64,000 nt of DNA, from NCBI GenBank assembly GCA_948443805.1, contig CAOJUB010000003.1, positions 69,832-133,831 of the forward strand, in the 5' to 3' direction. Origin of the DNA: an uncultured Clostridia bacterium (GTDB lineage Bacteria > Bacillota > Clostridia > Oscillospirales > UBA644). The notes under the pieces were generated by a model that made no database searches, was not told the DNA's origin, and worked only from the letters and a program-made list of their open reading frames with translations. Shown here piece after piece: positions 4,110 to 60,634 of the stretch. The position numbers and the translations under genes were made by a program. Position 1 is the first letter of the stretch. Every line of letters starts with the position of its first letter.

Positions 4110-4787
4110 TTATCGGTTTTTCAGCAGCAGTTCCGCCAGCAGAAGATCGTCGTCGGTTGTGATTTTGATATTTTCATAACTGCACAAACAGGTTTTAATC
4201 GGAATTCCGTGTTTTTCTGCGATCGAACAGTCGTCGGTAAAGTCGGCAAGCCGGTCTTTTTCCGCCTCCATCGCGGATAGGATTTGTTCTTTTCGGAAGA
4301 TCTGCGGGGTTGCTGCTTCGAACAGGGCGTCGCGTTTGGGAGTGAAAGCGATAAATCCGTTTTTGTCTGTTTGTTTGACGGTGCTTTTCGGTTTGGTTCC
4401 GCAGCATACTGCGCCGGTTTGATACGCAAGGCGAACGGCGCGGTCGATCTCTTCCGGTTGAATTAACGGCCGGGCGCCATCGTGAATGGCGACAAATTCA
4501 CTTTGAGGGTCGGCGGCGAGAATGCCGTTTCTTGCCGATTCTTCCCGGCAGGAGCCCCCTTCGGTAATGCAGGCGATTTTCTCGATGGTAAGCGTCCGGA
4601 CAAACGCGGCGATTTCTTCATTGGCAACAAGAATGATTTCGCTGACCGTTTCGGCTTTGTCAAACGCCGACAGGGTTCTTTCTATCACGCTCTTTCCGCC
4701 GATCAACGCCGTCTGCTTATTCGTGACGGCTGTCATCCGTGTTGCTTTTCCGGCGGCGAGCAGGATTGCCGATGTAAAATGTTTCAT
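4110..4787 (-). CDS. ispD: 2-C-methyl-D-erythritol 4-phosphate cytidylyltransferase
   Basis: 225 aa. N-terminal ILLAAGKATRM nucleotide-binding motif and family-typical length. Confidence 0.9.
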   Translation of the reverse strand: MKHFTSAILLAAGKATRMTAVTNKQTALIGGKSVIERTLSAFDKAETVSEIILVANEEIAAFVRTLTIEKIACITEGGSCREESARNGILAADPQSEFVAIHDGARPLIQPEEIDRAVRLAYQTGAVCCGTKPKSTVKQTDKNGFIAFTPKRDALFEAATPQIFRKEQILSAMEAEKDRLADFTDDCSIAEKHGIPIKTCLCSYENIKITTDDDLLLAELLLKNR

Positions 4788-4824
4788 TATTTTCCCCCAA
4801 TATGCTGCGTATCTTTTCCCGGAA

Positions 4825-5153
4825 AGAAGCGCAGGCTGTTTTTTGTTGCGATATCAAATTTGCGCCGAAAAAAAAGCGGTTATCCGGAACGGAGATTCAA
4901 CCGGAGGGTTGAAAGGCTTTTTTTAGAAGAACAGCTTGCTGTGTTTTTTGTTGCGATATCAAATTTGCGCCGAAAAAAAGCGGTTATCCGGAACGGAGAT
5001 TCAACCGGAGGGTTGAAAGGCTTTTTTTAGAAGAACAGCTTGCTGTGTTTTTTGTTGCGATATCAAATTTGCGCCGAAAAAAAGCGGTTATCCGGAACGG
5101 AGATTCAACCGGAGGGTTGAAACGCTTTTTTTAGAAGAACAGCTTGCTGTTCT
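4825..5153. repeat. Three head-to-tail copies of a 104-105 bp unit, each ending in an AGAACAGC..GCTGT dyad remnant
   Basis: The TTTTTTG unit landmarks fall at 4839, 4944 and 5048. The copies differ by one A in an A-run and a G/C change at 5123. A perfect 18-bp palindrome AGAACAGCTTGCTGTTCT sits at 5136-5153. Confidence 0.9.
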
Positions 5154-5155
5154 TT

Positions 5156-5184
5156 ATTGTACCACGGAAAGATTTTTCTGTCAA
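5156..5184 (-). promoter_or_regulatory. Sigma-A-type promoter reading toward ispD
   Basis: On the minus strand: TTGACA (5184-5179), 17-nt spacer, TACAAT (5161-5156). Then AA, then the 18-bp palindrome. Confidence 0.6.
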
Positions 5185-5206
5185 TATGGATTTCACAAAA
5201 AAAACC

Positions 5207-5235
5207 TTGATTTTTCAGGATAAATACGATATAAT
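5207..5235 (+). promoter_or_regulatory. Sigma-A-type promoter for the ymdB-like gene
   Basis: TTGATT (5207-5212), 17-nt spacer, TATAAT (5230-5235). Confidence 0.6.
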
Positions 5236-5286
5236 ACAAAATGTATAGGAATAAACTGGAATTTTTCGGAAAAAGAGGATACAGGA

Positions 5287-6042
5287 TTGAGGACCTTATT
5301 TATCGGAGATATTGTCGGTCCGGCCGGAATCGAGTTTACCGCCAGACTTCTGCCGGGATTGATTCGGGAGGAAAAAATTGATTTTGTAATCGCCAACGGC
5401 GAGAATTCCGCTCTTCACAACGGCATTACGCCTGCGGGCGCAGAAACGCTCCGGTATGCCGGTGTGGATGTGATTACGCTGGGCAATCATGCGTTCCGGC
5501 AAAAAAGCGGCTGCGATTTGATGTATGAGTGCGGATATGTCATCCGGCCGGGGAATTTTCCTTCGGAAGCGCCGGGACAGGGAACTGCTGCGGTGGACAC
5601 GCCGTTCGGCAGGGTTGGCGTAATCAACGCGATGGGTCAGCTGTATATGATCAGCTGCGACAATCCGTTTACCTTTGCGAAAAAAGCGGTGGAAAAACTT
5701 TCTGACTGCGATTATATTTTTATGGATTTTCATGCGGAAGCCACCAGTGAAAAGCAGGCGATGGGGTTTTATCTTGACGGAAAGATTACCTGTTTTTTCG
5801 GAACGCATACGCATGTACAGACCAATGACTTTCGTATACTGCCGAAAGGCAGCGGCTATATTTCCGATGTGGGAATGGTCGGCGGCAGAAATTCTGTTCT
5901 CGGCGTTTGCCCGGAGGGGCCGGTAAGCCGTTTTGTTACCGGGCTTCCGGCGGCTTTTGCACAGGCGGAGGAGGATTTGTCGTTCTGTTCGGTGATTTTT
6001 GATTCCGAAACCAAAGAAATGATTCCGAAAAATATTACCTGA
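5287..6042 (+). CDS. ymdB: YmdB-family metallophosphoesterase (2',3'-cyclic-nucleotide 2'-phosphodiesterase)
   Basis: N-terminus MRTLFIGDIVGPAG, plus GNH and GTHTH metal-ligand motifs. TTG start with AAAGAGGA upstream. Confidence 0.8.
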   Translation: MRTLFIGDIVGPAGIEFTARLLPGLIREEKIDFVIANGENSALHNGITPAGAETLRYAGVDVITLGNHAFRQKSGCDLMYECGYVIRPGNFPSEAPGQGTAAVDTPFGRVGVINAMGQLYMISCDNPFTFAKKAVEKLSDCDYIFMDFHAEATSEKQAMGFYLDGKITCFFGTHTHVQTNDFRILPKGSGYISDVGMVGGRNSVLGVCPEGPVSRFVTGLPAAFAQAEEDLSFCSVIFDSETKEMIPKNIT

Positions 6043-6120
6043 ACGCCTGCGGAGATTTTCAGCTGTGCAGGAAGAAAAACAGAGCAGAACGGTTTTCTGC
6101 TTAGAAAGGTCGGTTTCAAC

Positions 6121-6768
6121 ATGAAAATAGCGCCTTCGCTTCTGGCAAGCGATTTTAACTCGCTCTGCGATGAAATACAGAGCGTTTCCTGCGCGGATCT
6201 TCTTCATCTAGACGTGATGGATGGAATTTTTGTCCCGAATATCTCTTTCGGTCTTCCGGTGATTTCTTCTATCCGGAAAAAGAGCGATATGCTTTTTGAC
6301 GTGCATCTGATGATTACTGAGCCGGAGCGGTATCTTTCCGAATTTGCAGCGGCCGGCGCCGATTATATCACGGTTCATCAGGAAAGCACCGAACGAGCTG
6401 CGGAATGTCTGAAAACCATCCGGTCTCTGGGAAAAAAGGCGGGGCTTTCGGTCAAACCCTTAACGCCGGTGCAGGAGATTTTTCCGCTGCTTCCGCTTTG
6501 CGATCTGGTTTTGGTTATGACGGTTGAACCGGGTTTCGGCGGACAGAAATTGATTCCGGACTGTCTGGAAAAGGTCCGGCTGCTGGCCGACCGGAAAAAA
6601 GAGACAGGCCTTTCATTTTTGATTGAAGCCGACGGCGGTATCGGCGGGGAGAACCTTTCGTATGCCGCTTCTTTCGGTCTGGAGGCTGCGGTGATGGGGT
6701 CGGCACTGTTCCGTTTTGCACCGGAGCGCCGCGCTGAAGAGATTCATAAATTGCAGGCAATCGGCTGA
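6121..6768 (+). CDS. rpe: Ribulose-phosphate 3-epimerase
   Basis: IAPSLLASDF...LHLDVMDGIFVPNISFG...VEPGFGGQ motifs. 215 aa. Confidence 0.92.
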   Translation: MKIAPSLLASDFNSLCDEIQSVSCADLLHLDVMDGIFVPNISFGLPVISSIRKKSDMLFDVHLMITEPERYLSEFAAAGADYITVHQESTERAAECLKTIRSLGKKAGLSVKPLTPVQEIFPLLPLCDLVLVMTVEPGFGGQKLIPDCLEKVRLLADRKKETGLSFLIEADGGIGGENLSYAASFGLEAAVMGSALFRFAPERRAEEIHKLQAIG

Positions 6769-6856
6769 CCGGATTGCCGACGGTGTGAAGTTTCGCGCCG
6801 GAAAGAAAGTTTTTCTGCGCTTGATTTTTGATTTTTTGAAAGGATAGGACTGAAGA

Positions 6857-7492
6857 ATGGCGTTTTTTCGTTCGGATTTTGAAAAAACGGTGAGAGAAAT
6901 GGTGGTTCCGCTTCGCAGCCGGCCGTTAAATCCGAAAAAAACCGTTGTGGTCAATATGGATACCATTAACGGGTTTTTTGTTCACGGTGCGCTGGCTTCT
7001 CCGCGTCTGGCGGCGATCATTCCGCAGATTGTCCGGGTGAATGAGTATTTCGGTTTCAGCCGGAAGTTGTTCTTTATTGACCGGCATTATGAAAACAGCC
7101 CGGAATTTTCTGCGTATCCGGAGCATTGCGTCGATCTTTCGGAATGTGAGGTTATTGATGAACTCAAACCGTTTGCCGACCCGGTTTACGCATCGATTAT
7201 TTATAAAAATTCCACAAACGGTTTCCTTAGCGCGAAATTTGCCGTATGGCTCAAACGGAATATGGAACAATACGACCATTATGTGATTACCGGCGGCGCT
7301 ACCGATATTTGCGTTATGCAGTTTGCACTGAGTTTGAAGGCCTATTTTAACGAACATAATATAAAAAAAGAGATTGCCGTGATTGAAAACGCCGTGCAGA
7401 CTTATGACAATGAGGCGCATGACGGCGACAGGATGCATTATTTTGCTTTATATAATCTTATGATGAACGGGGTAAGGTTGTATTCGATATGA
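6857..7492 (+). CDS. Isochorismatase-family cysteine hydrolase
   Basis: VVVNMDTINGF near the N-terminus and ITGGATDICV, which carries the catalytic Cys context. Confidence 0.7.
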   Translation: MAFFRSDFEKTVREMVVPLRSRPLNPKKTVVVNMDTINGFFVHGALASPRLAAIIPQIVRVNEYFGFSRKLFFIDRHYENSPEFSAYPEHCVDLSECEVIDELKPFADPVYASIIYKNSTNGFLSAKFAVWLKRNMEQYDHYVITGGATDICVMQFALSLKAYFNEHNIKKEIAVIENAVQTYDNEAHDGDRMHYFALYNLMMNGVRLYSI

Positions 7493-8613
7493 GTAAGAAA
7501 ATGTTCAGGGATATTTTTCTGCTGATTCTGTACTGTCTGCTGCTGACAGTTGTCATCGTGAAAATTGATGCAGTGATCGGTTTTTTGCTGATGGTCTGTT
7601 CGCTGCTGTCGCCTCTGCTGATCGGGGCGTCGATTGCCGTCATTCTGAACCGGCCGAATAAAAAGTTTTATACCTTTTACTGCCGGCTGCTTTCTGGGGG
7701 AAAGGACCGGGGTTATTGCCGGATTTTCAGCATTATTACCGTGTATGTTCTTTTCGTTGCGGTGATTGCGGCGATCGTATGGATCGTTGTTCCTCAATTC
7801 GCCGACAGTTTTTCCAATATTGCGGCGAATCTGGAAAGTTATTACCGGAATGCTTCGTCCTTTTTTGAAACGGTTTCCCAGACCTATCATCTGGAGGTCG
7901 ATATTTCGGCGCTGGAAGGAAATCTGATTTCTTTTCTGGAAACTTTCAAGCAGCATATCAGCGATTCTCTTCCGCAGATTGTCGGGGCTACGACAGGACT
8001 GGTTTCGTCGGTGACGAATTTTGTTTTCGGGTTGATTTTTTCGATTTATCTTCTGATTGATAAAAACCGGCTGATTTATCAGGCAAAAAACCTGATCCGT
8101 GTGTTTTTGCCCGAACGGTTCGGCCGTTTATTGATTTCTTCCTGCAGCAGTATATCGGGTATTCTTCAGAATTATGTCGGCGTACGGCTGATGACCGGCC
8201 TGTTTTCCGGTATTTTCTGCTTTATCGGCATGACGGTTTTCGGCTTTGATTATGCGCTGCTGGTTTCGGCGCTGGTCGGGGTTCTGACGATCGTTCCGGT
8301 GTTCGGGCCTTGGTTCGGCTGCTTTGTTTGCCTGGTGCTTTCGCTCCTGGTGTATCCGGAAAAGGTTTTGTGGCTGTTGCTTCTGTATTGGGGGCTGTAT
8401 TTTGCGGAGCGGTTCTTTGTTTTCCCGTTTATTTTGGAACGGGAGACCGATCTTCCTCCGCTTTGGCGAATTGTCTCGGTTTCTTTTTTCGGCGCGGCGT
8501 TCGGTTTTAAAGGAATGTTGATTGCGATTCCTGTAACCGCATTTTTCTATGCGGTGTTTGCCGAATGGATTGCCGGCAGGGAACAGAAAAAGAAAGAAAA
8601 AATATCGGTATAA
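7489..8613 (+). CDS. AI-2E family transporter (PerM/UPF0118)
   Basis: 374-aa polytopic membrane protein with the TIVPVFGPW region typical of the family. ATGA overlap with the upstream gene. Confidence 0.8.
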   Translation: MSKKMFRDIFLLILYCLLLTVVIVKIDAVIGFLLMVCSLLSPLLIGASIAVILNRPNKKFYTFYCRLLSGGKDRGYCRIFSIITVYVLFVAVIAAIVWIVVPQFADSFSNIAANLESYYRNASSFFETVSQTYHLEVDISALEGNLISFLETFKQHISDSLPQIVGATTGLVSSVTNFVFGLIFSIYLLIDKNRLIYQAKNLIRVFLPERFGRLLISSCSSISGILQNYVGVRLMTGLFSGIFCFIGMTVFGFDYALLVSALVGVLTIVPVFGPWFGCFVCLVLSLLVYPEKVLWLLLLYWGLYFAERFFVFPFILERETDLPPLWRIVSVSFFGAAFGFKGMLIAIPVTAFFYAVFAEWIAGREQKKKEKISV

Positions 8614-8650
8614 TTTATTGGTGGCAGTTAGGGAAAGGACGGAATGGAAA

Positions 8651-9673
8651 ATGATAAAAAAACAATTGGAAGAAGTGAAAGAAAAGGCGCTTGAAGCGCT
8701 TTCTCATGCGGATATTCTGGATTCTTTGGAACAGGTTCGGGTTCGTTTTCTCGGCAAAAAGGGAGAAGTGACCGCGATTTTATCGCAGATGGGGAAACTC
8801 TCTCCGGAGGAACGCCCGGTAATCGGCCAGAAGGCCAATGAGGTTCGAGGGCTGATCGAAAAGAAAATTGCCGAACGGAAAGAGGAGCTTTCCAAAGCGG
8901 CGGCGGAGCAGAAACTGAAAAGCGAAAAGCTGGATATCACCCTGCCGGGAAAACGTTCGCGGATCGGGAAAAAACATCCGGTTTCTGTGGTTCTTGACGA
9001 AATTAAAGACGCGTTTGTTTCTATGGGATATTCGATTGCCGATGGACCGGAGGTCGAATACGATTATTATAATTTTGAAGCGCTGAATATTCCGAAATCC
9101 CATCCGGCCAGAGATACGCAGGATACCTTTTATTTCTCTCCGGAAATGCTACTGCGGACACAGACTTCTTCGGTGCAGATCCGGACAATGGAAAAAAGAA
9201 AGCCGCCGATTAAAATTCTTGCTCCCGGCAGAGTTTACCGTATCGATGAGATCGACGCGACGCATTCGCCTGTTTTTCATCAGATTGAGGGGCTGGTAGT
9301 CGATAAGGGCATTACCATGGCGCATCTGAAAGGCGCGCTGGATTCCATGGCGAAAAAGCTGTTCGGCGAAAATGTTACCACACGTATCCGTCCCGATTAT
9401 TTCCCCTTTACCGAACCTTCTGCCGAAATTTCGGTTTCGTGCTTTATGTGCGGCGGAGAAGGGTGTCCCTTCTGCAAAAACGAGGGCTGGGTCGAGATCG
9501 GCGGCGCAGGCATGGTCAATCCCAAGGTTCTGGAAGGCTGCGGGATCGATTCTTCCGAGTATACCGGTTTTGCTTTCGGCATGGGGCTGGAACGGCTGGT
9601 TATGCGGCGCTACCGGATTACCGATATCCGGATGCTGTTTGAAAACGACGTTCGTTTTTTGAACAATTTCTGA
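8651..9673 (+). CDS. pheS: Phenylalanine--tRNA ligase alpha subunit
   Basis: Class II aaRS motifs: HPARD, FRTQTS-like RTQTSSVQ, GAGMVNP, FGMGLERL. ATG 8651 gives the usual ~340 aa. The ORF-track start at 8549 lies inside the upstream gene. Confidence 0.95.
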   Translation: MIKKQLEEVKEKALEALSHADILDSLEQVRVRFLGKKGEVTAILSQMGKLSPEERPVIGQKANEVRGLIEKKIAERKEELSKAAAEQKLKSEKLDITLPGKRSRIGKKHPVSVVLDEIKDAFVSMGYSIADGPEVEYDYYNFEALNIPKSHPARDTQDTFYFSPEMLLRTQTSSVQIRTMEKRKPPIKILAPGRVYRIDEIDATHSPVFHQIEGLVVDKGITMAHLKGALDSMAKKLFGENVTTRIRPDYFPFTEPSAEISVSCFMCGGEGCPFCKNEGWVEIGGAGMVNPKVLEGCGIDSSEYTGFAFGMGLERLVMRRYRITDIRMLFENDVRFLNNF

Positions 9674-9718
9674 GATGTTTTCGGTTTGCTAAGTTTTTTG
9701 AGATGAGGAGAAAAAATC

Positions 9719-12106
9719 ATGGATATTTCATATAAATGGCTCAGACAATATACGCCGCTGACCGCAGAGCCCGGGGAATATATGCGGAAAATGTGCATGA
9801 CCGGTAATGAGGTGACAGGCTATGCCAATCATGCGGATCGCATTCACAACGTGGTGGTCGGAAAAGTTCTTTCTGTACGGAAACATCCGGACGCCGACAA
9901 ACTGTCGGTCAATTCGGTTGACGTCGGCAGCGGAGAGCCGATTCAGATTGTTACGGCGGCAACCAATGTTTTTGAAGGCGCATTGGTCCCGGTTGCGCTG
10001 CACAATTCATGCCTGTATGACGGAACCAAAATTACCAGAGGCAAACTGCGCGGCGAGGTCAGCAACGGGATGTTCTGTTCGGTTGCCGAACTCGGCTTGA
10101 CAACGCATGATTATCCCGGTTCGATCGAGGACGGAATTCTGATTCTTCACGAAGGAACGCCGGGGGATGATATCTGTCAGGTTTTAGGCCTTGACGACAC
10201 CGTTTTTACCGTTGATGTGGTTACGAACCGTCCCGACTGCCTGTCGGTTATTGGGATTGCCCGTGAGAGCGCCGCAACATTCGGCCTTCCTTTTCAGGTG
10301 GAAAAACCGGAAATCGCCTCTTTTGCTCCGGAAAAAGCATCGGATTTTCTGACTGTTTCTGTGGAAGCGCCCGATCTTTGTCCCCGCTACCGTGCGCGCG
10401 TGGTCAAAAATGTCAAGATTGGCCCGTCGCCGAAATGGATGATTGAGCAGCTGCGCAGCTGCGGCGTTCGTTCGATCAATAATATCGTGGATATTACCAA
10501 TTATGTCATGCTGGAATACGGTCAGCCAATGCATGCGTTTGACTATGCCTGCGTGGACGGCGGCTCAATCATTGTCAGAAGAGCGGCGTCGGGCGAAGTG
10601 ATGAAAACGCTGGACGGCCAGGAACGGAAGCTGACCGAGGAAATGCTGGTGATTGCCGATGACAAGAAGCCGGTTGCCGTTGCCGGCGTGATGGGCGGCG
10701 AAAACAGCGAAATTAAAGACACGACTTCAATGGTCGTGTTTGAATCGGCGAATTTCTTCGGGGCGTCTGTCAGAAAAACTTCAAAGGCGCTCGGAATGCG
10801 GACCGACGCTTCGGCGCGGTATGAAAAAAATCTGGATCCGAATCTGGTTGTCGACGCGCTGGACAGAGCCTGCCAGCTGGTAGAAGAACTCGGCGCCGGC
10901 GAAATTCTTTCCGGTGTGGTCGAGGTCGATCATTCCGATCATTCGGTCAGAACGATTCCCTTGGAAAAAGACTGGATCAATTCCTATATCAATGCTTCTC
11001 TTTCCGAGCAGGAAATGACGGGGATTCTTGAATCTCTCGGCTTTTCGGTGGAAAACGGGGTGGTTACGGTTCCGTCTTTCCGTTCGGATGTCGAGACCAA
11101 ATACGATCTTTCAGAGGAAATCGCGAAATTTTACGGTTATGACAATATTCCATCCGCTTCCTTCAAGAGTGATATCTCGGGCGGCGGCTATACCGAGGAA
11201 CAAAAATTTGAACGGGAACTTGGCGAAGCGCTCCGCGGAGTCGGCCTGAGCGAGATTTTGACCTATACTTTTGTCAGCCCCAGAATTTATGATAAATTAC
11301 GGGTTCCCGCCGACAGTCCGCTGCGGAATGCCTTGAAAATTTCCAACCCGCTCGGGGAAGATACGTCGGTTATGCGGACAACTACGCTTTCTTCCATGCT
11401 GGAGGTTCTTTCTCGCAATTACAATAACCGGAATTCCGAAGCCTATCTTTATGAGATCGGCAAGATTTATCTGAAGAATGCGGATGAAGCAGAACTTCCT
11501 GAAGAGCGGAAGATTGTTACGCTCGGTTTTTACGATTATGACGGGAAAGCGGATTTCTTCACGCTGAAGGGTATGGCGGAGGAAGTATTTGCTTCTTTGA
11601 ACCTCAAAGAGGCGGAATACCGTCCCTGTTCGGATCATCCTTCGTATCATCCCGGCCGGACGGCAGAGATTTGGATAGACCGAGAAAAGATCGGTATTCT
11701 CGGTCAGATTCATCCGGCTGTCGCCGAGGCGTTCGGTCTTTCGGGCGAAGTGTACTGTGCGGAGATTAGTTATCCGCTGTTGTATGCTTCCCGGGCGGCA
11801 GAACATGTGTATAAGCCGCTGCCGAAGTACCCCGCCGCAACAAGAGACCTGGCGCTTCTGTGTTCGGAGGATGTTTATAGCGGCGAGATCGAAAAGGTAA
11901 TCCGCAAAGCGGGCGGAAAGAATCTGGAAAGCGTATCCCTTTTTGACGTCTATACCGGCCGTCAGGTTAAGGAAGGGTATAAGAGCCTGGCCTACGCGCT
12001 TTCGTTCCGGCGGGATGATTCGACGATGTCCGATGAGGAAACCGACCGGCTGATCGAAAATATTCTTGCGGCTTTGGAAGAAAACGGCGTGCAGATTCGT
12101 TCGTAA
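9719..12106 (+). CDS. pheT: Phenylalanine--tRNA ligase beta subunit
   Basis: 795 aa. N-terminal MDISYKWLRQY, tRNA-binding, B3/4, B5 and FDX-ACB regions. Lies directly after pheS. Confidence 0.95.
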   Translation: MDISYKWLRQYTPLTAEPGEYMRKMCMTGNEVTGYANHADRIHNVVVGKVLSVRKHPDADKLSVNSVDVGSGEPIQIVTAATNVFEGALVPVALHNSCLYDGTKITRGKLRGEVSNGMFCSVAELGLTTHDYPGSIEDGILILHEGTPGDDICQVLGLDDTVFTVDVVTNRPDCLSVIGIARESAATFGLPFQVEKPEIASFAPEKASDFLTVSVEAPDLCPRYRARVVKNVKIGPSPKWMIEQLRSCGVRSINNIVDITNYVMLEYGQPMHAFDYACVDGGSIIVRRAASGEVMKTLDGQERKLTEEMLVIADDKKPVAVAGVMGGENSEIKDTTSMVVFESANFFGASVRKTSKALGMRTDASARYEKNLDPNLVVDALDRACQLVEELGAGEILSGVVEVDHSDHSVRTIPLEKDWINSYINASLSEQEMTGILESLGFSVENGVVTVPSFRSDVETKYDLSEEIAKFYGYDNIPSASFKSDISGGGYTEEQKFERELGEALRGVGLSEILTYTFVSPRIYDKLRVPADSPLRNALKISNPLGEDTSVMRTTTLSSMLEVLSRNYNNRNSEAYLYEIGKIYLKNADEAELPEERKIVTLGFYDYDGKADFFTLKGMAEEVFASLNLKEAEYRPCSDHPSYHPGRTAEIWIDREKIGILGQIHPAVAEAFGLSGEVYCAEISYPLLYASRAAEHVYKPLPKYPAATRDLALLCSEDVYSGEIEKVIRKAGGKNLESVSLFDVYTGRQVKEGYKSLAYALSFRRDDSTMSDEETDRLIENILAALEENGVQIRS

Positions 12107-12153
12107 AAGCCGTTCCGGCCAAGGTTTGGGGCAGCGGGCGCGCAGATAAGCAA

Positions 12154-12177
12154 AAGAGAAGGCAGCCCCTTCTTTTG
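12154..12177 (+). terminator. Possible terminator after pheT
   Basis: GAAGG (12158-62) pairs with CCTTC (12168-72), extended by A-T and G-T pairs, then TTTT. Short stem. Confidence 0.4.
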
Positions 12178-12223
12178 ATACAGAAAATTCGGGCGGAAAC
12201 GTCCGTTCAGAAAGGAGTCCGGC

Positions 12224-12469
12224 ATGATGGATAATACTATTCCTTTTTCCCTGAGAGACAGGCGCAACGATGATATGAGGAAAACGCTTATACAGGTATA
12301 CGACGCGCTGGTTGAAAAGGGGTACGATCCGATTAATCAGTTGGTCGGGTATATTCTTTCGGAAGATCCGACCTATATCACCAACCACGGAAACGCACGG
12401 AATCTGATTCGGAAGATCGACCGTGACGAGCTGCTGCACGTGTTGATTACCGAGTATCTGAATAACTGA
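12224..12469 (+). CDS. ireB: IreB-family regulatory phosphoprotein (UPF0297)
   Basis: [47 protein letters not shown] matches the UPF0297 core. 81 aa. Confidence 0.8.
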
Positions 12470-12572
12470 AGAGCCGGAAAACGGGTCAACCGGATTCTTT
12501 CCGGCAGGGTATTTGTTTGCCGTAATCCCGGAGGCGTTTTTTCTCTGGTGCGGCGGAATGGGGGTCAAAAGA

Positions 12573-13088
12573 ATGGATCATCTTTATGAACAGCTGTTTA
12601 AGAAAAAAAAGACGGGAAAGGATCATTGTCTTCGCGCCGCCATCTTTCTGGCAACGCTGGTAATTTCAGCGGTTGTTTTTTTCCTGCTGTGCAATCTGAT
12701 TCCGAATGCGTTCGGCCGACTTCTCGGCTCTTTTGCTATTATCGGGGTCGTTTACGCCGGGTATAAACTTTTTATGCTGACCGATGTGGAATATGAGTAT
12801 ATTTATATGGCCGGCGAAATCGATTTCGACCGGATTCTGGCCAAAAGCGACCGGAAACGGATTCTGACGGTCCGGTGTTCGGAGTTTGAAGATTTCGGCG
12901 AGTGGAACCAGTCTTCGGCGGAACGGCTGAAAAATATGCCGCTGGCCAAGCGGTACGATTTTACTTCGAATCAGGGCGGCGCCGTATACTATGCTGTTTT
13001 GAATCGGAAAGAAGTCGGAAAAATTGCGGTTCTGTTTGAGCCCGAAGAGCGGATTTTAACCGATATGAAGCGGTATATCAAAAGATAA
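12573..13088 (+). CDS. Hypothetical membrane-anchored protein
   Basis: The ORF has two predicted TM helices followed by a soluble domain. ATG 12573 (MDHLYEQ) follows GGGGG. No family recognised. Confidence 0.45.
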   Translation: MDHLYEQLFKKKKTGKDHCLRAAIFLATLVISAVVFFLLCNLIPNAFGRLLGSFAIIGVVYAGYKLFMLTDVEYEYIYMAGEIDFDRILAKSDRKRILTVRCSEFEDFGEWNQSSAERLKNMPLAKRYDFTSNQGGAVYYAVLNRKEVGKIAVLFEPEERILTDMKRYIKR

Positions 13089-13158
13089 ACATGTTTTTCG
13101 TTAAGAAAATGCAGGTTGATCCGGCGGCTTTGCAGAAGGAAAAACGATTGGGTCGAAA

Positions 13159-14661
13159 GTGGTGTTGGCGGAAATGACAGACTGGTATATTCTGCAGGCG
13201 GAACAGTTTCGCGCGGCGGACGGCTATGCGGTTTCGGAAATGGGTCTTTCTGTTCCGGAGCTGATGGAACGGGCGGCCGACGGGCTGTATAAGGGCTGTG
13301 TGGATCTCTGCGGTGAATCGTTGAAAAAAATTCCGGTGACGTTTCTTTGCGGAAAGGGAAACAACGGGGGAGACGGTTTTTGTCTTTGTGCACGGCTGGC
13401 GGAGGAAGGGTATGATGTTGCTGCGATTGCTGTTTTCGGAACCGGTGAACTTTCCGGCGCCGCCGCCGAAATGGCTTCCCGTGTTCCGGAAAACTGCCTG
13501 ATTAATCTGGTTTGCGAGACGGGGGAATCCATGGCATATCAGCGGATTGCCTGTTCCGGGTTGGTGGTTGACTGTGTTTTCGGCACTGGTTTTTCCGGCG
13601 TTCTTTCAGAAGAGATTCAGCGTCTGTTTGCGGCTGTTCAGGGAAAAAAGATTCTTGCCTGTGATCTTCCGTCGGGCGTTTCCTGCGACGGCGGACAGGT
13701 TTCGCCGGGTGCGTTGAAAGCGGATAAAACCATTACTTTTGCTGCCTGGAAACCGGCTTGTTTTTTATATCCGGGAAAGGATTTTTTCGGAGAAACCGAG
13801 GTCTGGGATATCGGGATTACCCGTGCGGTGGAAAAAAACGGCGGGGCGTTTCGTTTGATTACGGCTGATTTGGTTCGTCCGCTTTTAAAAGTACGGCCGG
13901 AGAATTCGCATAAAGGGACCTTCGGCGGCGTACAGCTGTGCTGCGGTTCCAAATGGATGAGCGGCGCCGCGGGGCTTGCCGCAAGAGCCGCTCTGAAAAG
14001 CGGGGTGGGGCTGGTTTATTTATCCTGCGGGAAAAAACTGCGGCGGATTTTGCAGACGTCGGTTTTGGAAGCGGTGTACACCAAACCGAAAGGAAAAACA
14101 AAAGCCGGTGCTTTTGTTGTCGGCTGCGGGCTCGGTAAAAAAGCGCGCTATCTGAAAAGTTATTGGAAACGGAAAAAACCGATGGTCGTGGACGGCGATG
14201 CGCTGAATTATTTGGCAAACCATCCGAAATTGCTGAAAAAGTCTCCTTCCTCAACAGTGCTTACACCGCATCCGCTGGAAATGGCAAGACTGCTGGGAAT
14301 TCCTGTTTCGGCGGTGGAATCTGACCGGATCGGCATTGCACGGTATGCGGCGGAAAGATTTTCTTCGGTCGTTGTGTTAAAAGGACGGCACACGGTAATC
14401 GCTTCGCCCGGCGGTAGCGTGTGGATTAACCGGGGAGGGAATTCTGCTTTGGCCAAAGGCGGCAGCGGCGATGTTCTTGCCGGTTTTCTCGGCGGCCTGC
14501 TTGCTTCCGGTTATTCTGCGGAAGAGGCTTCTGTCATTGCGGTATACGCGCATTCCCGGGCGGCGGAAATTCTGACGGCCGGCCGGCCGGAGGAGGGCGT
14601 TTTGCCTTCGGAGATTATTTCGTTGCTTGACAATGCCTTTTTTTTGCGGCAAAATTTATAA
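13159..14661 (+). CDS. nnr: Bifunctional NAD(P)H-hydrate repair enzyme Nnr (epimerase/dehydratase)
   Basis: N-terminal YjeF motif GKGNNGGDG. C-terminal carbohydrate-kinase motif GGSGDVLAG. Alternative start ATG 13174. Confidence 0.88.
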   Translation: MVLAEMTDWYILQAEQFRAADGYAVSEMGLSVPELMERAADGLYKGCVDLCGESLKKIPVTFLCGKGNNGGDGFCLCARLAEEGYDVAAIAVFGTGELSGAAAEMASRVPENCLINLVCETGESMAYQRIACSGLVVDCVFGTGFSGVLSEEIQRLFAAVQGKKILACDLPSGVSCDGGQVSPGALKADKTITFAAWKPACFLYPGKDFFGETEVWDIGITRAVEKNGGAFRLITADLVRPLLKVRPENSHKGTFGGVQLCCGSKWMSGAAGLAARAALKSGVGLVYLSCGKKLRRILQTSVLEAVYTKPKGKTKAGAFVVGCGLGKKARYLKSYWKRKKPMVVDGDALNYLANHPKLLKKSPSSTVLTPHPLEMARLLGIPVSAVESDRIGIARYAAERFSSVVVLKGRHTVIASPGGSVWINRGGNSALAKGGSGDVLAGFLGGLLASGYSAEEASVIAVYAHSRAAEILTAGRPEEGVLPSEIISLLDNAFFLRQNL

Positions 14662-14709
14662 GGATGAATGGCGGTGTTTTGATCGAAACGCACTGCCGGG
14701 GGAATAAAA

Positions 14710-15270
14710 ATGGAACAAAAGAATAATCAAAAAATCCGGAATCTGGTGCTTGCAGCGATGTTCCTTGCGCTGTGTCTGCTTCTTCCCTTTCTTACCGGAC
14801 AGATTCCCCAGGTCGGGAACGCTCTTTCTCCTATGCATATTCCGGTGCTTTTGTGCGGGTTTCTCTGCGGCTGGCCGTTCGGCCTTGCGGTCGGCGCAGC
14901 AGCGCCGCTTCTCCGTTTTTCTCTTTTCGGGTTGCCGCCTCTTTTTCCTACAGGGATCGCGATGTGTTTTGAACTTGCCGTATATGGGACGGTTTCTGGG
15001 ATTTGTTATCGGTTTTTTCCAAAAAAACCGATATATATTTATTTATCGCTGCTTATTTCCATGCTGGCAGGACGGTTTGTCTGGGGGGCGGTTCGCTGGA
15101 TTCTTGCTTTGCTGTTCGGGCTGGAATTTACATTTCAGATGTTTTTGGCCGGTGCGTTTGTCACGGCGTTTCCGGGGATTCTTTGTCATCTGCTTCTGAT
15201 TCCCCTTATTGTGATTCCGGTCGGCCGGTTTTCATCGTCTCCTGTGGCGACAATATCGGAAGGCCGCTGA
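14710..15270 (+). CDS. ECF transporter S (substrate-binding) component, substrate unknown
   Basis: 186-aa six-TM-like protein. N-terminal RNLVLAAMFLALCLLLPFL and MHIPVLLCGF resemble ECF S components. There is no space upstream for a riboswitch. Confidence 0.6.
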   Translation: MEQKNNQKIRNLVLAAMFLALCLLLPFLTGQIPQVGNALSPMHIPVLLCGFLCGWPFGLAVGAAAPLLRFSLFGLPPLFPTGIAMCFELAVYGTVSGICYRFFPKKPIYIYLSLLISMLAGRFVWGAVRWILALLFGLEFTFQMFLAGAFVTAFPGILCHLLLIPLIVIPVGRFSSSPVATISEGR

Positions 15271-15314
15271 AAAATGGAAAAACTGCGCCGTTTATTACGG
15301 CGGAAGGAGTTTTT

Positions 15315-15803
15315 ATGCAACGGGAATTTTCTCCGCAGCAAAAAACCGGCATCGGCCGGTATCTGTTGATCTTTGCCGGATGTATCGCGGCGTTTTGGGT
15401 CATCGAAAATATCCTTCCCGGCGGGCTGCATACCGCGCCGCTGGTCTTTTTGGTTTTTGCCGCAGCGGCTTTTGCCATGTACCGTATGCTGAAAACCAAT
15501 TACAGCCGCTGTGAGTTTGTTTTGACCGACGAAGGTTTTTTTGTTACAACAGCGATCGGGCATAAGGAACGGATTAATCTTTCGTTGCCCCTGAAAAATA
15601 TAAAAAAGTTATACGGAAAAAATGAAATCCCCGGTGATTTATCTGTATCGACAGAGGTCTACGGCGCGGAAGGAGAAGGGTATTCCGCTATTTTGTATTA
15701 TGATGAAACGTTAAAATGTGAAAAATTAGCGAAATTTTCCGTTTCAGATGATTTTTACCGCGCTTTTTCGGAAAAAATGCTTGACAAACGGGAATCCCTG
15801 TGA
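15315..15803 (+). CDS. Hypothetical membrane protein
   Basis: ATG 15315 follows GGAAGGAG. Two TM helices then a ~90-aa soluble domain. The ORF-track start at 15003 lies inside the previous gene. Confidence 0.5.
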   Translation: MQREFSPQQKTGIGRYLLIFAGCIAAFWVIENILPGGLHTAPLVFLVFAAAAFAMYRMLKTNYSRCEFVLTDEGFFVTTAIGHKERINLSLPLKNIKKLYGKNEIPGDLSVSTEVYGAEGEGYSAILYYDETLKCEKLAKFSVSDDFYRAFSEKMLDKRESL

Positions 15804-15810
15804 TATAATA
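15782..15810 (+). promoter_or_regulatory. Consensus sigma-A promoter of infC-rpmI-rplT
   Basis: TTGACA (15782-87), 17-nt spacer, TATAAT (15805-10). Confidence 0.7.
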
Positions 15811-15950
15811 GCAAAAGACAAAGAAGAAGAACTCGTTTCTCACCCTGCGCCAACGGTAGCAGCGGTCAATATGATAATTCGCCCTGCGCGGATTTATTTT
15901 ATTGAAGTGATTAACGGTGTTAATCGCTTTTTCTTTTGTATATAAAAAAA
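15811..15950 (+). promoter_or_regulatory. infC operon leader with terminator-like hairpin (candidate L20-responsive attenuator)
   Basis: ~140-nt untranslated leader. GTGATTAAC (15907-15) pairs with GTTAATCGC (15919-27), followed by TTTTTCTTTT. The position matches the L20 leader known in Firmicutes. Homology was not verified. Confidence 0.45.
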
Positions 15951-15965
15951 TCGGAGGTGTTTTTT

Positions 15966-16481
15966 ATTAAAGCGAAAGGCATGCAGATCAATGAGAATAT
16001 CAGAGATCCACAGGTGCGCCTGATCGGCGCGGACGGAGAACAGTTAGGTATTGTTTCTTCAGCAGATGCGCTGGATAAGGCCGAAAATCTGAATTTGGAT
16101 CTGGTTCTGATATCTCCCGCCGCCAATCCGCCGGTCTGTAAGATTATGGATTACAAGAAGTACTGTTTTGAACAGGAAAGACGGATGAAAGAAGCAAAGA
16201 AAAATCAGAAGATTGTCGATGTGAAGGAAATCCAGCTTTCGATTCGGATTGAAGACAATGATTTCAAGACCAAACTTAACCGCGCTATTAAATTTTTGTC
16301 GGGCGGCGATAAGGTCAAGGTCAGAGTCCGTTTCCGCGGAAGAGAGATTACGCATCCGGAACTCGGTATGGAGCTGACGGCCCGTTTCTTTGACGGCTGC
16401 AAAGAAGTTTCTTCAATTGAAAAGCCTGCGAAGCTTGACGGAAGAAATATCATTATGATTCTTGCGCCGAAAGCTGTGTAA
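15966..16481 (+). CDS. infC: Translation initiation factor IF-3, probable ATT start
   Basis: INENIRDPQVRLIGADGEQLGIV and the C-terminal domain are typical of IF-3. ATT at 15966 lies 8 nt after GGAGG (15953-57). The in-frame ATG at 15981 has no properly spaced SD. Confidence 0.85.
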   Translation: MKAKGMQINENIRDPQVRLIGADGEQLGIVSSADALDKAENLNLDLVLISPAANPPVCKIMDYKKYCFEQERRMKEAKKNQKIVDVKEIQLSIRIEDNDFKTKLNRAIKFLSGGDKVKVRVRFRGREITHPELGMELTARFFDGCKEVSSIEKPAKLDGRNIIMILAPKAV

Positions 16482-16520
16482 AAACACAACGATTCGTTAT
16501 CAAAAAAAGGAGAGATCAAC

Positions 16521-16718
16521 ATGGCAAAGCTGAAGACGCACAGAGGCGCCGCGAAAAGATTTAAAATTACCGCCGGCGGCAAAGTAAAGATGAACCACAC
16601 GAAAAGAAGACATATACTCACCAAGAAGACAACGAAGTTCAAGAGAGGCCTCCGGAAAGCAGGTTATGCTTCCCCGGCAAACGCCCCCACTGTAAAGAAA
16701 CTGTTGCCTTACGCATAA
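16521..16718 (+). CDS. rpmI: 50S ribosomal protein L35
   Basis: MAKLKTHRGAAKRFKITAGGKVK. 65 aa. Operon position. Confidence 0.95.
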   Translation: MAKLKTHRGAAKRFKITAGGKVKMNHTKRRHILTKKTTKFKRGLRKAGYASPANAPTVKKLLPYA

Positions 16719-16743
16719 GCAAGTAGGATAGGAGAATAGAAAA

Positions 16744-17097
16744 ATGGCTAGAATTAAAAGGGCTATGATGACCCGCAAAAGACGCAAAAAGGTTTTAAAA
16801 CTTGCCAAAGGTTACTTCGGCGCAAAATCCAAACTTTTCAGAACAGCCAACCAGGCGGTTATGAAATCTCTGACCTACGCTTATGTGGGAAGAAAGCAGA
16901 AAAAGAGAGATTTCCGTTCTCTCTGGATTACCAGAATTTCCGCTGCTGCAAAGGCAAATGGAATCAATTATTCGCGTTTGATGTACGGTTTGAAAAAGGC
17001 GAATATCGATCTGAACAGAAAAATGCTTGCCGAGATCGCTGTTTCTGACGCAAGCGCTTTCGCCGGCCTTGTTGAGAAAGCAAAGGCGGCTCTGTAA
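16744..17097 (+). CDS. rplT: 50S ribosomal protein L20
   Basis: [26 protein letters not shown]. 117 aa. Confidence 0.95.
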
Positions 17098-17130
17098 AAA
17101 TTGAAACCGCGCACTGCCGGTTTTATAAAA

Positions 17131-17158
17131 ATGGAGAGGGCTTTCCTCTCCATTTTTT
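17131..17158 (+). terminator. Intrinsic terminator after rplT
   Basis: ATGGAGAGG (17131-39) pairs with CCTCTCCAT (17145-53), 5-nt loop, then a T-run. Confidence 0.8.
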
Positions 17159-17194
17159 CAAATAAGGATTGTTTTTAACAAAGAATGGGGATTC

Positions 17195-17932
17195 TTGATG
17201 CAGAAGATACTGAGCCCTCTGCGCCGTGCGGTGGAGGATTATGATATGATAGCCGACGGGGAACGGATTGCCGTCGGGGTTTCGGGAGGTAAGGATTCGG
17301 TCACGCTTCTTGCCGCGCTGAAGAGGCTTTCTCTGTTTTATCCGAAACATTTTGAAGTGATCGGCATTACGCTGGATACTGGTATAGACGGTATGGATTT
17401 TTCTCCGTTGGAACGTTTTGCCAGAGAGGCGGATATTGAACTTCATGTGATAAAAACGAATATCAAGCAAGTAGTTTTTGATATCCGAAAAGAAAGCAAT
17501 CCCTGTTCTCTCTGTGCGATGCTCCGCCGCGGGGCTTTGCATGATGCGGTTAAGGAACTGGGCGTCAATAAACTGGCGCTCGGCCATCATTATGACGATG
17601 TCTCCGAAACCTTTATGCTGAATCTGATTTATGAGGGGCGGATTGGTTGTTTCCGGCCGGTGACCTATCTGGACCGCAAGGAGATTACCGTGATACGGCC
17701 GCTGATTTATGCAACGGAAAAAGAAGTCCGCGGCTGCGTTGCAAGAAATTCTCTTCCGGTCGTTCATAATCCCTGCCCGGCAAACGGAAAAACCGAACGC
17801 GAGGGAATGAAGCGTCTTTTGCAGGAGCTGGAAGACCGGTATCCCGGTGTAAATAAACGAATTTTCGGCGCCTTGCAGCGTTCCGGGATCGACGGTTGGC
17901 AGGAAAGCGTTCGGGGAAGGAAAAAAAAGTGA
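17195..17932 (+). CDS. ttcA: PP-loop ATPase, TtcA-like tRNA 2-thiocytidine biosynthesis protein
   Basis: SGGKDS PP-loop (VGVSGGKDSVTLL), CSLCAMLRRG and CPANG cysteine motifs. Start is TTG 17195 or ATG 17198. Confidence 0.72.
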   Translation: MMQKILSPLRRAVEDYDMIADGERIAVGVSGGKDSVTLLAALKRLSLFYPKHFEVIGITLDTGIDGMDFSPLERFAREADIELHVIKTNIKQVVFDIRKESNPCSLCAMLRRGALHDAVKELGVNKLALGHHYDDVSETFMLNLIYEGRIGCFRPVTYLDRKEITVIRPLIYATEKEVRGCVARNSLPVVHNPCPANGKTEREGMKRLLQELEDRYPGVNKRIFGALQRSGIDGWQESVRGRKKK

Positions 17933-17949
17933 AGTTTGTCGGCTAAGTC

Positions 17950-17978
17950 TTGAAAAAAGACGGGAATTATGGTATAAT
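17950..17978 (+). promoter_or_regulatory. Sigma-A-type promoter upstream of the alpha/beta hydrolase leader
   Basis: TTGAAA (17950-55), 17-nt spacer, TATAAT (17973-78). Confidence 0.7.
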
Positions 17979-17979
17979 A

Positions 17980-18123
17980 AAGAACAACAAGTTGTTCTTA
18001 GGAAAAAAGCGTTTCAACCATTCGGTTGAAGTTCCGTTTTGGATAACCGCTTTTTTCTGGTGCGAAATTCATGTGGTAGAAAAAGAACAGTAAACTTGTT
18101 CTCAAGAACAGCAAGCTGTTCTT
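17980..18123 (+). repeat. Single copy of the ispD-leader element, flanked by three AGAACA-N6/7-TGTTCT dyads
   Basis: Dyad A lies at 17981-17998, the core element at ~18004-18072, dyad B at 18084-18102 and dyad C at 18105-18122. The core aligns with the reverse complement of the 4825-5153 unit. Confidence 0.8.
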
Positions 18124-18131
18124 TGGAGGGG

Positions 18132-18821
18132 ATGATGTCAATTTCTCTTTTCTATATAGAACAAGGTTCGGGAGAGCCGCTCATTCTTCTGCATGGAAAC
18201 GGCGAAAACGGCGCTTATTTTTCTAATCAGATATCGTTTTTTTCCAAACGGTACCGGGTGATCGTGCCGGATACCCGGGGACACGGTCAATCGCCGCGGG
18301 GAACCGCCCCCTTTACTCTGGCGCAGTTTGTCGAAGATCTTTGCTCCTTTATGGATGAGCATGCCCTTCCAAAAGCAAATCTTCTCGGATTTTCCGATGG
18401 GGGGAATATCGCGCTTCTTTTTGCTTTGCGGTATCCGGAGCGGGTGTTGAAACTGGTTCTGAACGGGGCGAATCTTTCTCCTTCCGGGGTGAAGGCCTCT
18501 TTTCAGATTCCTATTATAATCGGTTATCAGATCGCATCGTTTTTCGGGCGTTGGCGTGATGAAGCAAAAAAACATGCGGACATGCTTGCGCTGATGGTCA
18601 AAGAACCGGATATCCGCCCGGAACAACTGAAAACGGTTGCGGTTCCTGCGTTGGTTATTGCCGGAACACGGGATATGATTAAGGAAAAACATACCCGGCT
18701 GCTTGCGGCGAGTTTGCCGGATTCCTCCTTGGTGTTCATTCCGGGCGATCATTTTATCGCCGCAAAAAAAACTGCGGCCTTTAACCAGGCTGTATTTGCG
18801 TTTTTAGATCAGGACTATTAA
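18132..18821 (+). CDS. Alpha/beta-fold hydrolase
   Basis: LILLHGNGENG, a nucleophile-elbow-like GFSDGG, and C-terminal GDH. ATG 18132 follows GGAGGGG. The ORF-track start at 18039 lies inside the repeat element. Confidence 0.8.
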   Translation: MMSISLFYIEQGSGEPLILLHGNGENGAYFSNQISFFSKRYRVIVPDTRGHGQSPRGTAPFTLAQFVEDLCSFMDEHALPKANLLGFSDGGNIALLFALRYPERVLKLVLNGANLSPSGVKASFQIPIIIGYQIASFFGRWRDEAKKHADMLALMVKEPDIRPEQLKTVAVPALVIAGTRDMIKEKHTRLLAASLPDSSLVFIPGDHFIAAKKTAAFNQAVFAFLDQDY

Positions 18822-18875
18822 CTTGGATCAAAAATAAACCGCTGCCGGACTGACTGCGGCGGAGGGGAGGTCATT

Positions 18876-60364: not shown

Positions 60365-60562
60365 ATGATAGATAAAACAAAAGGGGAGATGCCGCTCGGT
60401 TTCGGGATGGCGTTAGCACAGAACGAAGCGGCAATGCAGGCATTTTCATCGTTGTCGGCGGAACAGAAAAAAGACTGCCTTGCAAAGGCAAAAAAAGTTT
60501 CGTCAAAGGACGAGATGACGGCTCTTGTCGACAGTTTATCCCCGACAAGAACAGAAGGTTAG
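60365..60562 (+). CDS. Small hypothetical protein (65 aa)
   Basis: AAAGGAG SD before the ATG and a strong terminator after it. No family recognised. Confidence 0.4.
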   Translation: MIDKTKGEMPLGFGMALAQNEAAMQAFSSLSAEQKKDCLAKAKKVSSKDEMTALVDSLSPTRTEG

Positions 60563-60565
60563 AAA

Positions 60566-60598
60566 GAACCCCGGAGCATTTGCTCCGGGGTTCTTTTT
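60566..60598. terminator. Bidirectional terminator
   Basis: GAACCCCGGAGC (60566-77) pairs with GCTCCGGGGTTC (60582-93), then T5. AGAAA lies on the other side. Confidence 0.8.
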
Positions 60599-60634
60599 CA
60601 GAATATCTGTTTTTCCGCAGATATTTTTTTTGCT

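Follow-up and report, generated by a model that had tools for sequence, protein, structure and literature searches.

A dyad-bounded structured repeat, resembling an intergenic variable-number tandem repeat, in the 5' leaders of ispD and of an alpha/beta-fold hydrolase gene of an uncultured Clostridia bacterium

Why are two genes of one bacterium, an alpha/beta-fold hydrolase gene and ispD, preceded at sites 13 kb apart by the same succession of promoter, palindrome and foldable element? The question is raised by a 64,000-nt stretch of an uncultured Clostridia bacterium (UBA644; GenBank assembly GCA_948443805.1, contig CAOJUB010000003.1), which was analysed at its full length and is called the window below. 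A preliminary description of the hydrolase leader had offered as answers a small regulon, a class of leader RNA, or a mobile cassette that carries its own promoter. The answer favoured here, to which we give roughly an even chance, is that both leaders contain a lineage-restricted, dispensable, dyad-bounded and structured repeat, similar to variable-number tandem repeats (VNTRs) and BOX elements, which is neither a promoter cassette nor a ligand-sensing RNA and which we infer to act as a partial terminator. In both leaders the dyad AGAACAnCAAGnTGTTCT begins 2 nt after the -10 box and is followed by a 54-nt core, a spacer and further copies of the dyad, the repeat unit measuring about 104-124 nt at the two loci.

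For comparison with the window, contigs and loci of strains and relatives (L-numbered below) were drawn from the ENA, Logan and NCBI metagenome-assembled genome (MAG) sets. The loci that could be read for copies of the element were the 64-kb window and flanks of about 20 kb of the same region. The nearest named homologues belonged to Evtepia and 'Clostridiales' MAGs (63-68% identity), which points to an Oscillospirales-type bacterium. The chance expectation for the dyad was taken from shuffled sequence. The hydrolase leader was laid out as follows:

17950-17978 (+): sigma-70-type promoter of the hydrolase gene, read as native, with TTGAAA (17950-17955), a 17-nt spacer and a TG-extended TATAAT (17973-17978); promoter scan 11/12 with the TG, identical in the sister lineage
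17981-17998 (+): dyad D1, AGAACAACAAGTTGTTCT, composed of AGAACAAC-AA-GTTGTTCT and beginning 2 nt (AA) past the -10 box
17999-18122 (+): 124-nt segment (linker, core, spacer, D2 and D3) present in the window and missing in the sister lineage, seen as a gap in four contigs
18003-18056 (+): core, A6GCG...CGCT6, 54 nt, with a Y-shaped fold and a T6 end; outer stem 18003-18011 paired with 18048-18056, hairpin 1 at 18013-18030, hairpin 2 at 18033-18043
18057-18083 (+): spacer 3' of the core, CTGGTGCGAAATTCATGTGGTAGAAAA, homologous in alignments to the ispD spacer CGGCGCAAATTTGATATCGCAACAAAA
18084-18102 (+): dyad D2, AGAACAGT-AAA-CTTGTTCT
18105-18122 (+): dyad D3, AGAACAGC-AA-GCTGTTCT, the same as the ispD dyad (0 mismatches) and ending 2 nt before the ribosome-binding site
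18125-18821 (+): ribosome-binding site GGAGGGG (18125-18131), then the coding sequence (CDS) of the alpha/beta-fold hydrolase from the ATG at 18132

The ispD leader spans about 4790-5184 of the minus strand and contains the following:

5156-5184 (-): ispD promoter, read as native, with TTGACA, 17 nt and a TG-extended TACAAT; promoter scan 12/13, conserved in two related species
5136-5153 (-): dyad AGAACAGCAAGCTGTTCT, beginning 2 nt (AA) past the -10 box
4837-5150 (-): three 104-nt units in tandem, each running from the 3' part of the dyad through linker, core and spacer (Tandem Repeats Finder: period 104, 3.0 copies, 99% identity)
5084-5125, 4980-5021 and 4876-4917 (-): the ispD cores
4110-4787 (-): CDS of ispD, 2-C-methyl-D-erythritol 4-phosphate cytidylyltransferase (TIGR00453, 189.2 bits against a cut-off of 181.3)

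On reading the sequence, the features of the hydrolase leader that the preliminary description had listed (promoter, dyads, core, GGAGGGG and ATG) all lay where it had placed them, and the ispD leader opened alike on the minus strand, with TTGACA, 17 nt, TACAAT, AA and the dyad. The 18-mer was identical at 18105-18122 (+) and 5136-5153 (-), as had been said. In the 54-nt alignments the seven core differences were likewise sited as claimed. Three fall in hairpin loops (two in hairpin 1, one in hairpin 2) and a further two in the junction; of the other two, one turns a G-C pair into G-T and one is an A/G difference at the base of the outer stem. The description was silent on two points, namely that the ispD element is a 104-nt tandem repeat and that the homology between the two leaders continues past the core to take in the spacer, at about 79% identity over 134 nt. 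Chance does not account for the likeness of the leaders: the 18-mer dyad had seven matches in the window at up to 3 mismatches (0.01 expected) and a 42-nt core pattern had four, one at the hydrolase gene and three at ispD (0.00 expected). The dyads are direct and not inverted repeats of each other, because all carry a central AA (CAAG, not CTTG). D2 and D3 together form a 21-nt repeat in two copies (Tandem Repeats Finder), the internal dyads of the ispD array have a degenerate left arm (AACACAGCAAGCTGTTCT), and the predicted transcription start of the hydrolase gene falls inside the left arm of D1.

A VNTR-like character showed in the number of units at ispD. Among loci at least 99.3% identical to the window, the 104-nt unit was present once in L003, L006 and L077, twice in L076, and three times in L004 and L005 as in the window itself, all as read from short-read assemblies. 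The one-copy allele ends in a degenerate partial dyad, AAAACAGCCTGCGCTTCT, the expected remnant of a contracted tandem array. The features by which intergenic VNTRs are recognised were thus all found, with head-to-tail units in the range of about 40-150 nt, a copy number that varies between strains and related units at more than one locus. About 25 assemblies were compared for the orientation of the core, and in every one the unit had the same orientation relative to the downstream gene, which rejects an invertible switch.

At the hydrolase locus, presence and absence of the element could be compared directly. A sister lineage whose hydrolase is 93% identical was represented by four contigs from independent samples (L018-L021), which aligned to the window with 93-94% nucleotide identity in the flanks and one clean gap of 124 nt. 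The gap corresponds to 17999-18122, that is linker, core, spacer, D2 and D3, and the promoter, one dyad and the ribosome-binding site are kept; because the flanks repeat, the missing segment can be placed equally well at 17993-18116. The sister leader reads ...TTGAAAAAAGACGGGAATTATGGTATAATAAAAAACAACAAGTTGTTCT/TTGGAGGCTATGATG, with the junction TATAATAAAAAACAACAAGTTGTTCT/TTGGAGG (slashes mark the junction), so that its form of D1, AAAACAACAAGTTGTTCT, is followed directly by TTGGAGG. The window and the sister lineage differ by a second, small indel, 10 nt long, at 18820-18829, at the end of the hydrolase gene and in or next to the hydrolase-thyX intergenic region.

At ispD, the -35/-10 region is highly conserved in two related species (L011 and L015; IspD 67-69% identical), one of which lacks the element: the ispD leader of L015/L016 is about 60 nt long and has neither dyad nor core. 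Since the promoters are retained where the element is missing, both at the sister hydrolase gene and at the L015 ispD gene, the promoter-carrying cassette proposed earlier is excluded, and both promoters are, from these alignments, native to their loci and outside the repeat. The absence of the element from the orthologous loci of close relatives had been named in advance as the outcome that would speak against a regulatory role. This absence is what was found, and it favours the alternative of a repeat similar to repetitive extragenic palindromic (REP) sequences or to miniature inverted-repeat transposable elements (MITEs), which the same description had also named. Hydrolase homologues at 64-68% identity (L017, L022-L028, L051-L053) were uninformative on the conservation of the dyad, as they sit in non-syntenic operons with intergenic gaps of 3-70 nt.

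The hydrolase leader shows further variation near the element. In L050, which is 98.1% identical to the window, the sequence departs right after TATAAT with ATACGCAGAAAGCCTTGCA (L050 5206-5233; window 17970-17979 onward) and the contig then ends. The 19-mer that follows TATAAT in L050 had no other occurrence in the window or in the fetched loci, and L050 possibly represents a third allele at this junction of promoter and dyad. L047 and L079, which are the same contig (99.3% identity), carry a 31-nt deletion between two TTCT motifs (L047 5340-5365), equivalent to window 18123-18153. The deletion takes out the ribosome-binding site and the ATG of the hydrolase gene, whose called product has 185 aa there. 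Unless the deletion is an assembly artefact, that strain has a dispensable or pseudogenised hydrolase gene. To judge by this deletion, the region is prone to deletion between short repeats.

Short-read contigs also terminated frequently within both elements. In at least six samples, Logan assemblies gave contigs 12,883-12,888 nt long (L080-L083, L048-L049) whose ends fall at the ispD dyad on one side and at the very start of the hydrolase core on the other (window about 5135 to 18017). As these contigs stop at the same two points, both elements break k-mer assemblies at fixed positions. The break on the hydrolase side is not explained by a 17-nt stretch that is common with ispD, and may reflect strain polymorphism or unseen copies.

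Structural evidence came from folding and from a diverged homologue. The hydrolase core had a minimum free energy of -16.5 kcal/mol (z = -3.2), and the values across cores ranged from -16.5 to -17.2 kcal/mol (z = -3.2 to -4.3). A covariance model (R1), built from known copies of the core, scored all four window cores at 83-92 bits, the hydrolase core at 91.5 bits. On the loci of relatives, R1 matched the ispD leader of L011/L012 only (78.5 bits). The species represented by L011-L014 has an IspD that is 67% identical, with flanking genes at about 74% nucleotide identity, and an ispD leader of the same plan. In L011 the conserved promoter is followed, 1 nt past the -10 box, by a different perfect palindrome (12-5-12), GAATCAAAAGAC-TCTAC-GTCTTTTGATTC. 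An A-run leads to a homologous hairpin 1 (TTTCGACC-ATTC-GGTC), behind which stand a hairpin 2 whose stem is wholly different (CAGTAT-TTC-ATACTG) and GCTTTTTCCGGCGCAAA. Thereafter the 3' half of the palindrome recurs as a 28-nt direct repeat (26/28 matching), so that the right arm alone is repeated. Hairpin 1 with its loop and the spacer block CGGCGCAAA are kept in this orthologue.

In an ungapped alignment to the Y-shaped structure, 95% of the cells were paired and seven pairs had both partners changed. Slid controls gave 0-2 such pairs, and none of 500 shuffles came up to the observed value; in hairpin 2, all four pairs were compensatory. The compensatory changes of this one related species suggest that some structural constraint exists on the Y-shaped fold, a single divergent sequence being the source of all the covariation. 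Palindromes could also be kept perfect without selection, by templated 'quasipalindrome correction'.

The element was then delimited by searches. No Rfam family matched at the gathering threshold anywhere in the window, and the best sub-threshold matches at either locus (E of at least 0.85) were to unrelated families. A scan of 185,579 species genomes, among which this species is evidently not included, gave one chance match to the core pattern, inside a CDS; as the pattern is sequence-specific, diverged homologues such as the L011 copy would be missed by it. Of 15 stretches returned by a scan of JGI metagenomes, the ispD locus itself was the one true match, the other 14 being ordinary terminators or matches in coding sequence. 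In viral contigs the core had 0 matches and the dyad 22, apparently all within CDSs and none beside a promoter, and blastn against plasmids and phages found nothing. Across the 64-kb window, R1 detected no core beyond the four known; an extra match at 60560-60621 (23.5 bits) was a plain simple-hairpin terminator after a small gene (AGAACCCCGGAGCATTTGCTCCGGGGTTCTTTTT) and was rejected as a core homologue. The contig of that metagenome match, L035 (positions 1-1106, 2.8x coverage), agrees with the ispD leader over 117 nt without a mismatch, through core, spacer and degenerate dyad, and then passes into a gene for a ParA/Soj-like ATPase that the window lacks; a chimeric low-coverage assembly is the probable cause, the alternative being a third genomic context. 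On this evidence from sequence comparison, the element is restricted to a narrow clade, with two loci 13 kb apart within the readable region.

Several other identities were tried and rejected. Integron attC core sites (GTTRRRY) were not found by eye. A leader peptide was dismissed because the three sense frames of the unit are all closed and no short open reading frame (ORF) is conserved. The dyad also differs from a LexA box in its spacing, GAAC-N8-GTTC against CGAAC-N4-GTTCG. The consensus LexA (SOS) box of Firmicutes is CGAACATATGTTCG (PMC8270828).

The unit of about 104 nt consists of the 3' part of the 18-bp palindrome (D), an A-rich linker, the 54-nt core and the spacer, and is bounded by copies of D in direct orientation. 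On the favoured reading, recombination or replication slippage between the direct D repeats could amplify, contract or delete the unit, a deletion leaving a 'solo D' such as that of the sister lineage, and ectopic copying primed at D could seed a second locus. The unit would be transcribed from the upstream promoter, its Y-shaped hairpin and U-tract forming a partial intrinsic terminator or an RNA roadblock, so that downstream expression would be lowered stepwise with the number of units. The promoter-adjacent D may double as a DNA operator or as a 5' hairpin. A run of T6-T8 lies directly 3' of the cores, and this end, together with the sense-strand site between promoter and ribosome-binding site, makes a partial terminator or attenuator the most economical functional guess.

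A number of observations weigh against this reading. The strain copy counts were taken from short-read metagenome assemblies, in which 104-nt repeats can be collapsed or mis-counted. The terminator role is inferred from predicted folds: the stem is branched, with only three closing G-C pairs under a multiloop, and a consensus terminator scan flagged hairpin 1 alone (with a poor tail) and not the core. The core folds equally well on both DNA strands, which makes RNA-level and DNA-level roles inseparable, and the minimum-energy fold of L011 has no outer stem and its U-run is only 5 nt. The ispD gene, which is presumably essential, tolerates three units. A 'dispersed repeat family' would rest on two loci (n = 2). 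The hydrolase and ispD copies differ by about 21%, exceeding the 6-7% between the sister lineages, which leaves two scenarios: an old element may have been deleted by the sister lineage between D1 and D3, or the element may have come from an unseen donor. Finally, both elements start 1-2 nt past the -10 box, as does the L011 homologue, and plain recombination gives no explanation for this position. It puts the outer dyad arm at or upstream of the predicted transcription start, which favours a DNA-level role of the first dyad as an operator, a recombination site or a docking site; the dyad sequence differs between species, which argues against a conserved regulator.

A variant of the favoured reading addresses the position of the element. 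The terminator module, variable between 0 and 3 units, would serve as a heritable expression rheostat, and the dyad would be a docking site for a recombinase or a transcription-coupled process that lets the module move between promoters. Docking at the dyad would explain why the copies begin 1-2 nt after the -10 box, and we hold this extension to be improbable as a whole. An operator would account for the same position in another way. D would then bind a dimeric repressor of ispD and the hydrolase gene, the extra copies of D about 104 and 124 bp away would add cooperativity, looping or a roadblock, and the core would be a passenger. D is indeed a perfect 8-2-8 palindrome 2 nt past both -10 boxes, with a left arm upstream of or on the predicted start that an RNA hairpin could not use. 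It covers the start region of both promoters, as an operator should, and occurs at only these two of the nine strongest promoter-like sites of the window; it survives without the core in the sister lineage, and both the spacing from D1 to D2 and the ispD period are about 104 bp, near 10 helical turns. Of the small regulon suggested earlier, this leaves a possible role for the promoter-proximal dyad only, and it fails on conservation at orthologous promoters: the ispD promoter of L015 has no dyad and that of L011 an unrelated 12-5-12 palindrome. The downstream copies of D are degenerate (left arm AACACA at ispD, right arm only in L011) and resemble a by-product of duplication more than selected operators. 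The gene lists show no cognate regulator beside either locus, D is not a LexA box, and the 64-kb window holds no further D site at up to 1 mismatch. We regard a regulon as unlikely.

Movement by a transposase or recombinase encoded elsewhere would make the element a non-autonomous MITE-like or site-specific cassette that inserts at or next to D-like palindromes, with a recent hydrolase copy; this is rather unlikely. A clean pair of filled and empty sites with direct TGTTCT(T) or D repeats at the bounds, the 13-kb distance between the two loci and the frequent ends of short-read contigs within both elements would suit it, and the hydrolase copy (about 79% identity) is too diverged for a recent origin from the ispD copies, which hints at another donor. 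A MITE was rejected, however, because the bounding dyads are direct and lack terminal inverted repeats, and because the common flank (the 16-18-nt dyad or its TGTTCT(T) end) is far longer than target-site duplications normally are and recurs at both loci instead of being locus-specific. There is no third copy and no transposase link in the window and nothing in viral, plasmid or phage collections, deletion between direct repeats accounts for the empty site equally well, and a homologue at the same ispD position in the distant L011 argues for long residence and not recent hopping. The same L011 homologue bears on the notion of a conditional leader RNA, a riboswitch or protein-dependent attenuator whose three-way junction would sense a signal and control termination at the U-tract, with tandem copies sharpening the response. 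The sense orientation between promoter and ribosome-binding site at both loci, the low-energy junction fold, the compensatory changes in L011 and the conservation there of hairpin 1, its loop and the CGGCGCAAA block are what such an RNA would show. The leader RNA class of the preliminary description nevertheless found no support: there is no Rfam family and no true match in the 185,579 species genomes or the metagenomes, the element is absent from the 93-94% identical lineage and from the L015 ispD orthologue, its copy number ranges from 1 to 3 among strains, the covariation comes from one divergent sequence only, a pair-breaking variant (GCC) is present in two of the three ispD copies of the window, and minimum-energy folding, the only folding used, gave no antiterminator pairing that competes with the dyad hairpin or the Y-shaped core. 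Such a sensor is accordingly a doubtful proposition. Least of all do we expect a functionally neutral minisatellite, an easily duplicated and tolerated leader segment with no effect on expression. Presence/absence and copy-number polymorphism among close strains would fit it, as would tolerance of the pair-breaking variant and of the nearby deletion of a ribosome-binding site; against it, two hairpins are kept with seven compensatory changes in a species whose flanking genes are about 74% identical, and neither orientation nor position with respect to the -10 box differs between the two loci.

Some features of the surroundings were recorded beside these results. The hydrolase had generic alpha/beta-fold matches only, each below curated cut-offs, and its gene lies downstream of a TtcA/TilS-like gene in the same direction. 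The ispD gene and ymdB are transcribed divergently. In front of the ispD -35 box, about 70 nt that include GAAAAATCAAGGTTTTTTTGTGAAATCC are better conserved across three species than the flanking CDSs of about 74% identity (window 5185-5286; L011 9700-9790; L015 4830-4920), which suggests, from the alignment, that the two back-to-back promoters, of ymdB and of ispD, share a regulatory site. Antisense to the repeat array and the 5' end of ispD runs an ORF of 182 aa (window 4482-5030, plus strand), which owes its existence solely to an open antisense frame in the 104-nt unit and is probably spurious. A protein-database query with the array-encoded peptide of the adjacent antisense frame, meant to reveal further copies of the element as false ORFs, gave no candidate.

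Should the proposed terminator role hold, the number of terminator-like leader units would determine, among strains of one species, how strongly the hydrolase gene and ispD, a presumably essential gene of the isoprenoid pathway, are expressed. Such heritable tuning would leave promoter and CDS untouched and would hence be easily missed. A caution for annotation also follows: the element resembles a riboswitch or regulon signature, behaves as a VNTR, and fragments short-read assemblies at both loci.

The closest known systems are BOX elements, VNTRs of the mycobacterial interspersed repetitive unit (MIRU) type, and BrickBuilt, in which a MITE contains a minisatellite; each is a short and structured intergenic repeat whose internal tandem units vary and which can influence adjacent genes. 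In Streptococcus pneumoniae, BOX elements are modular boxA-boxB(n)-boxC intergenic repeats with more than 100 copies per genome; they form stable predicted hairpins, are co-transcribed with neighbouring genes and can alter their expression. The present element is likewise short, modular, intergenic and hairpin-forming, with an internal unit in variable tandem number, but it was seen at two loci, has no sequence similarity to BOX, and differs in its 18-bp palindromic bounds and in its place directly behind the -10 box. In Mycobacterium tuberculosis, VNTRs of the MIRU type are intergenic tandem repeats of 46-101 bp, present at about 40 loci. They share with the element a unit of about 100 nt, intergenic arrays within transcription units, a strain-variable copy number and related units at more than one locus; unlike it, MIRUs lie between the genes of operons, often with small overlapping ORFs, and have no terminator-like Y-shaped fold or palindromic bounds.

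The layout of promoter, repeat, structured segment with a U-tract, repeat, ribosome-binding site and gene also recalls 5'-leader terminators and attenuators, including the cwpV switch of Clostridioides difficile, in which an invertible segment between promoter and gene acts as a terminator in one orientation. In contrast to cwpV, no inversion was found in about 25 assemblies, and inversion would change little, as the core folds alike on both strands; in contrast to an intrinsic terminator or attenuator, the stem is branched, the closing helix is weak and no antiterminator is evident in the folds. STAR elements of Staphylococcus aureus are grouped with BrickBuilt of Porphyromonas gingivalis as species-restricted intergenic repeats. 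The minisatellite unit of BrickBuilt measures 23 nt, the ends of the element are small inverted repeats, and its 19 copies per genome have promoter activity of their own (PMC4596501). The likeness to it lies in a species-restricted intergenic repeat that combines a dispersed element with an internal tandem repeat and is proposed to modulate the transcription of neighbours, and the difference in the 104-nt unit, the direct-repeat ends and the native promoters found here (PMC4596501). The element is an addition to the known class of small structured intergenic repeats, with dyad-bounded units that may tune expression by copy number and that stand exactly at the transcript start.

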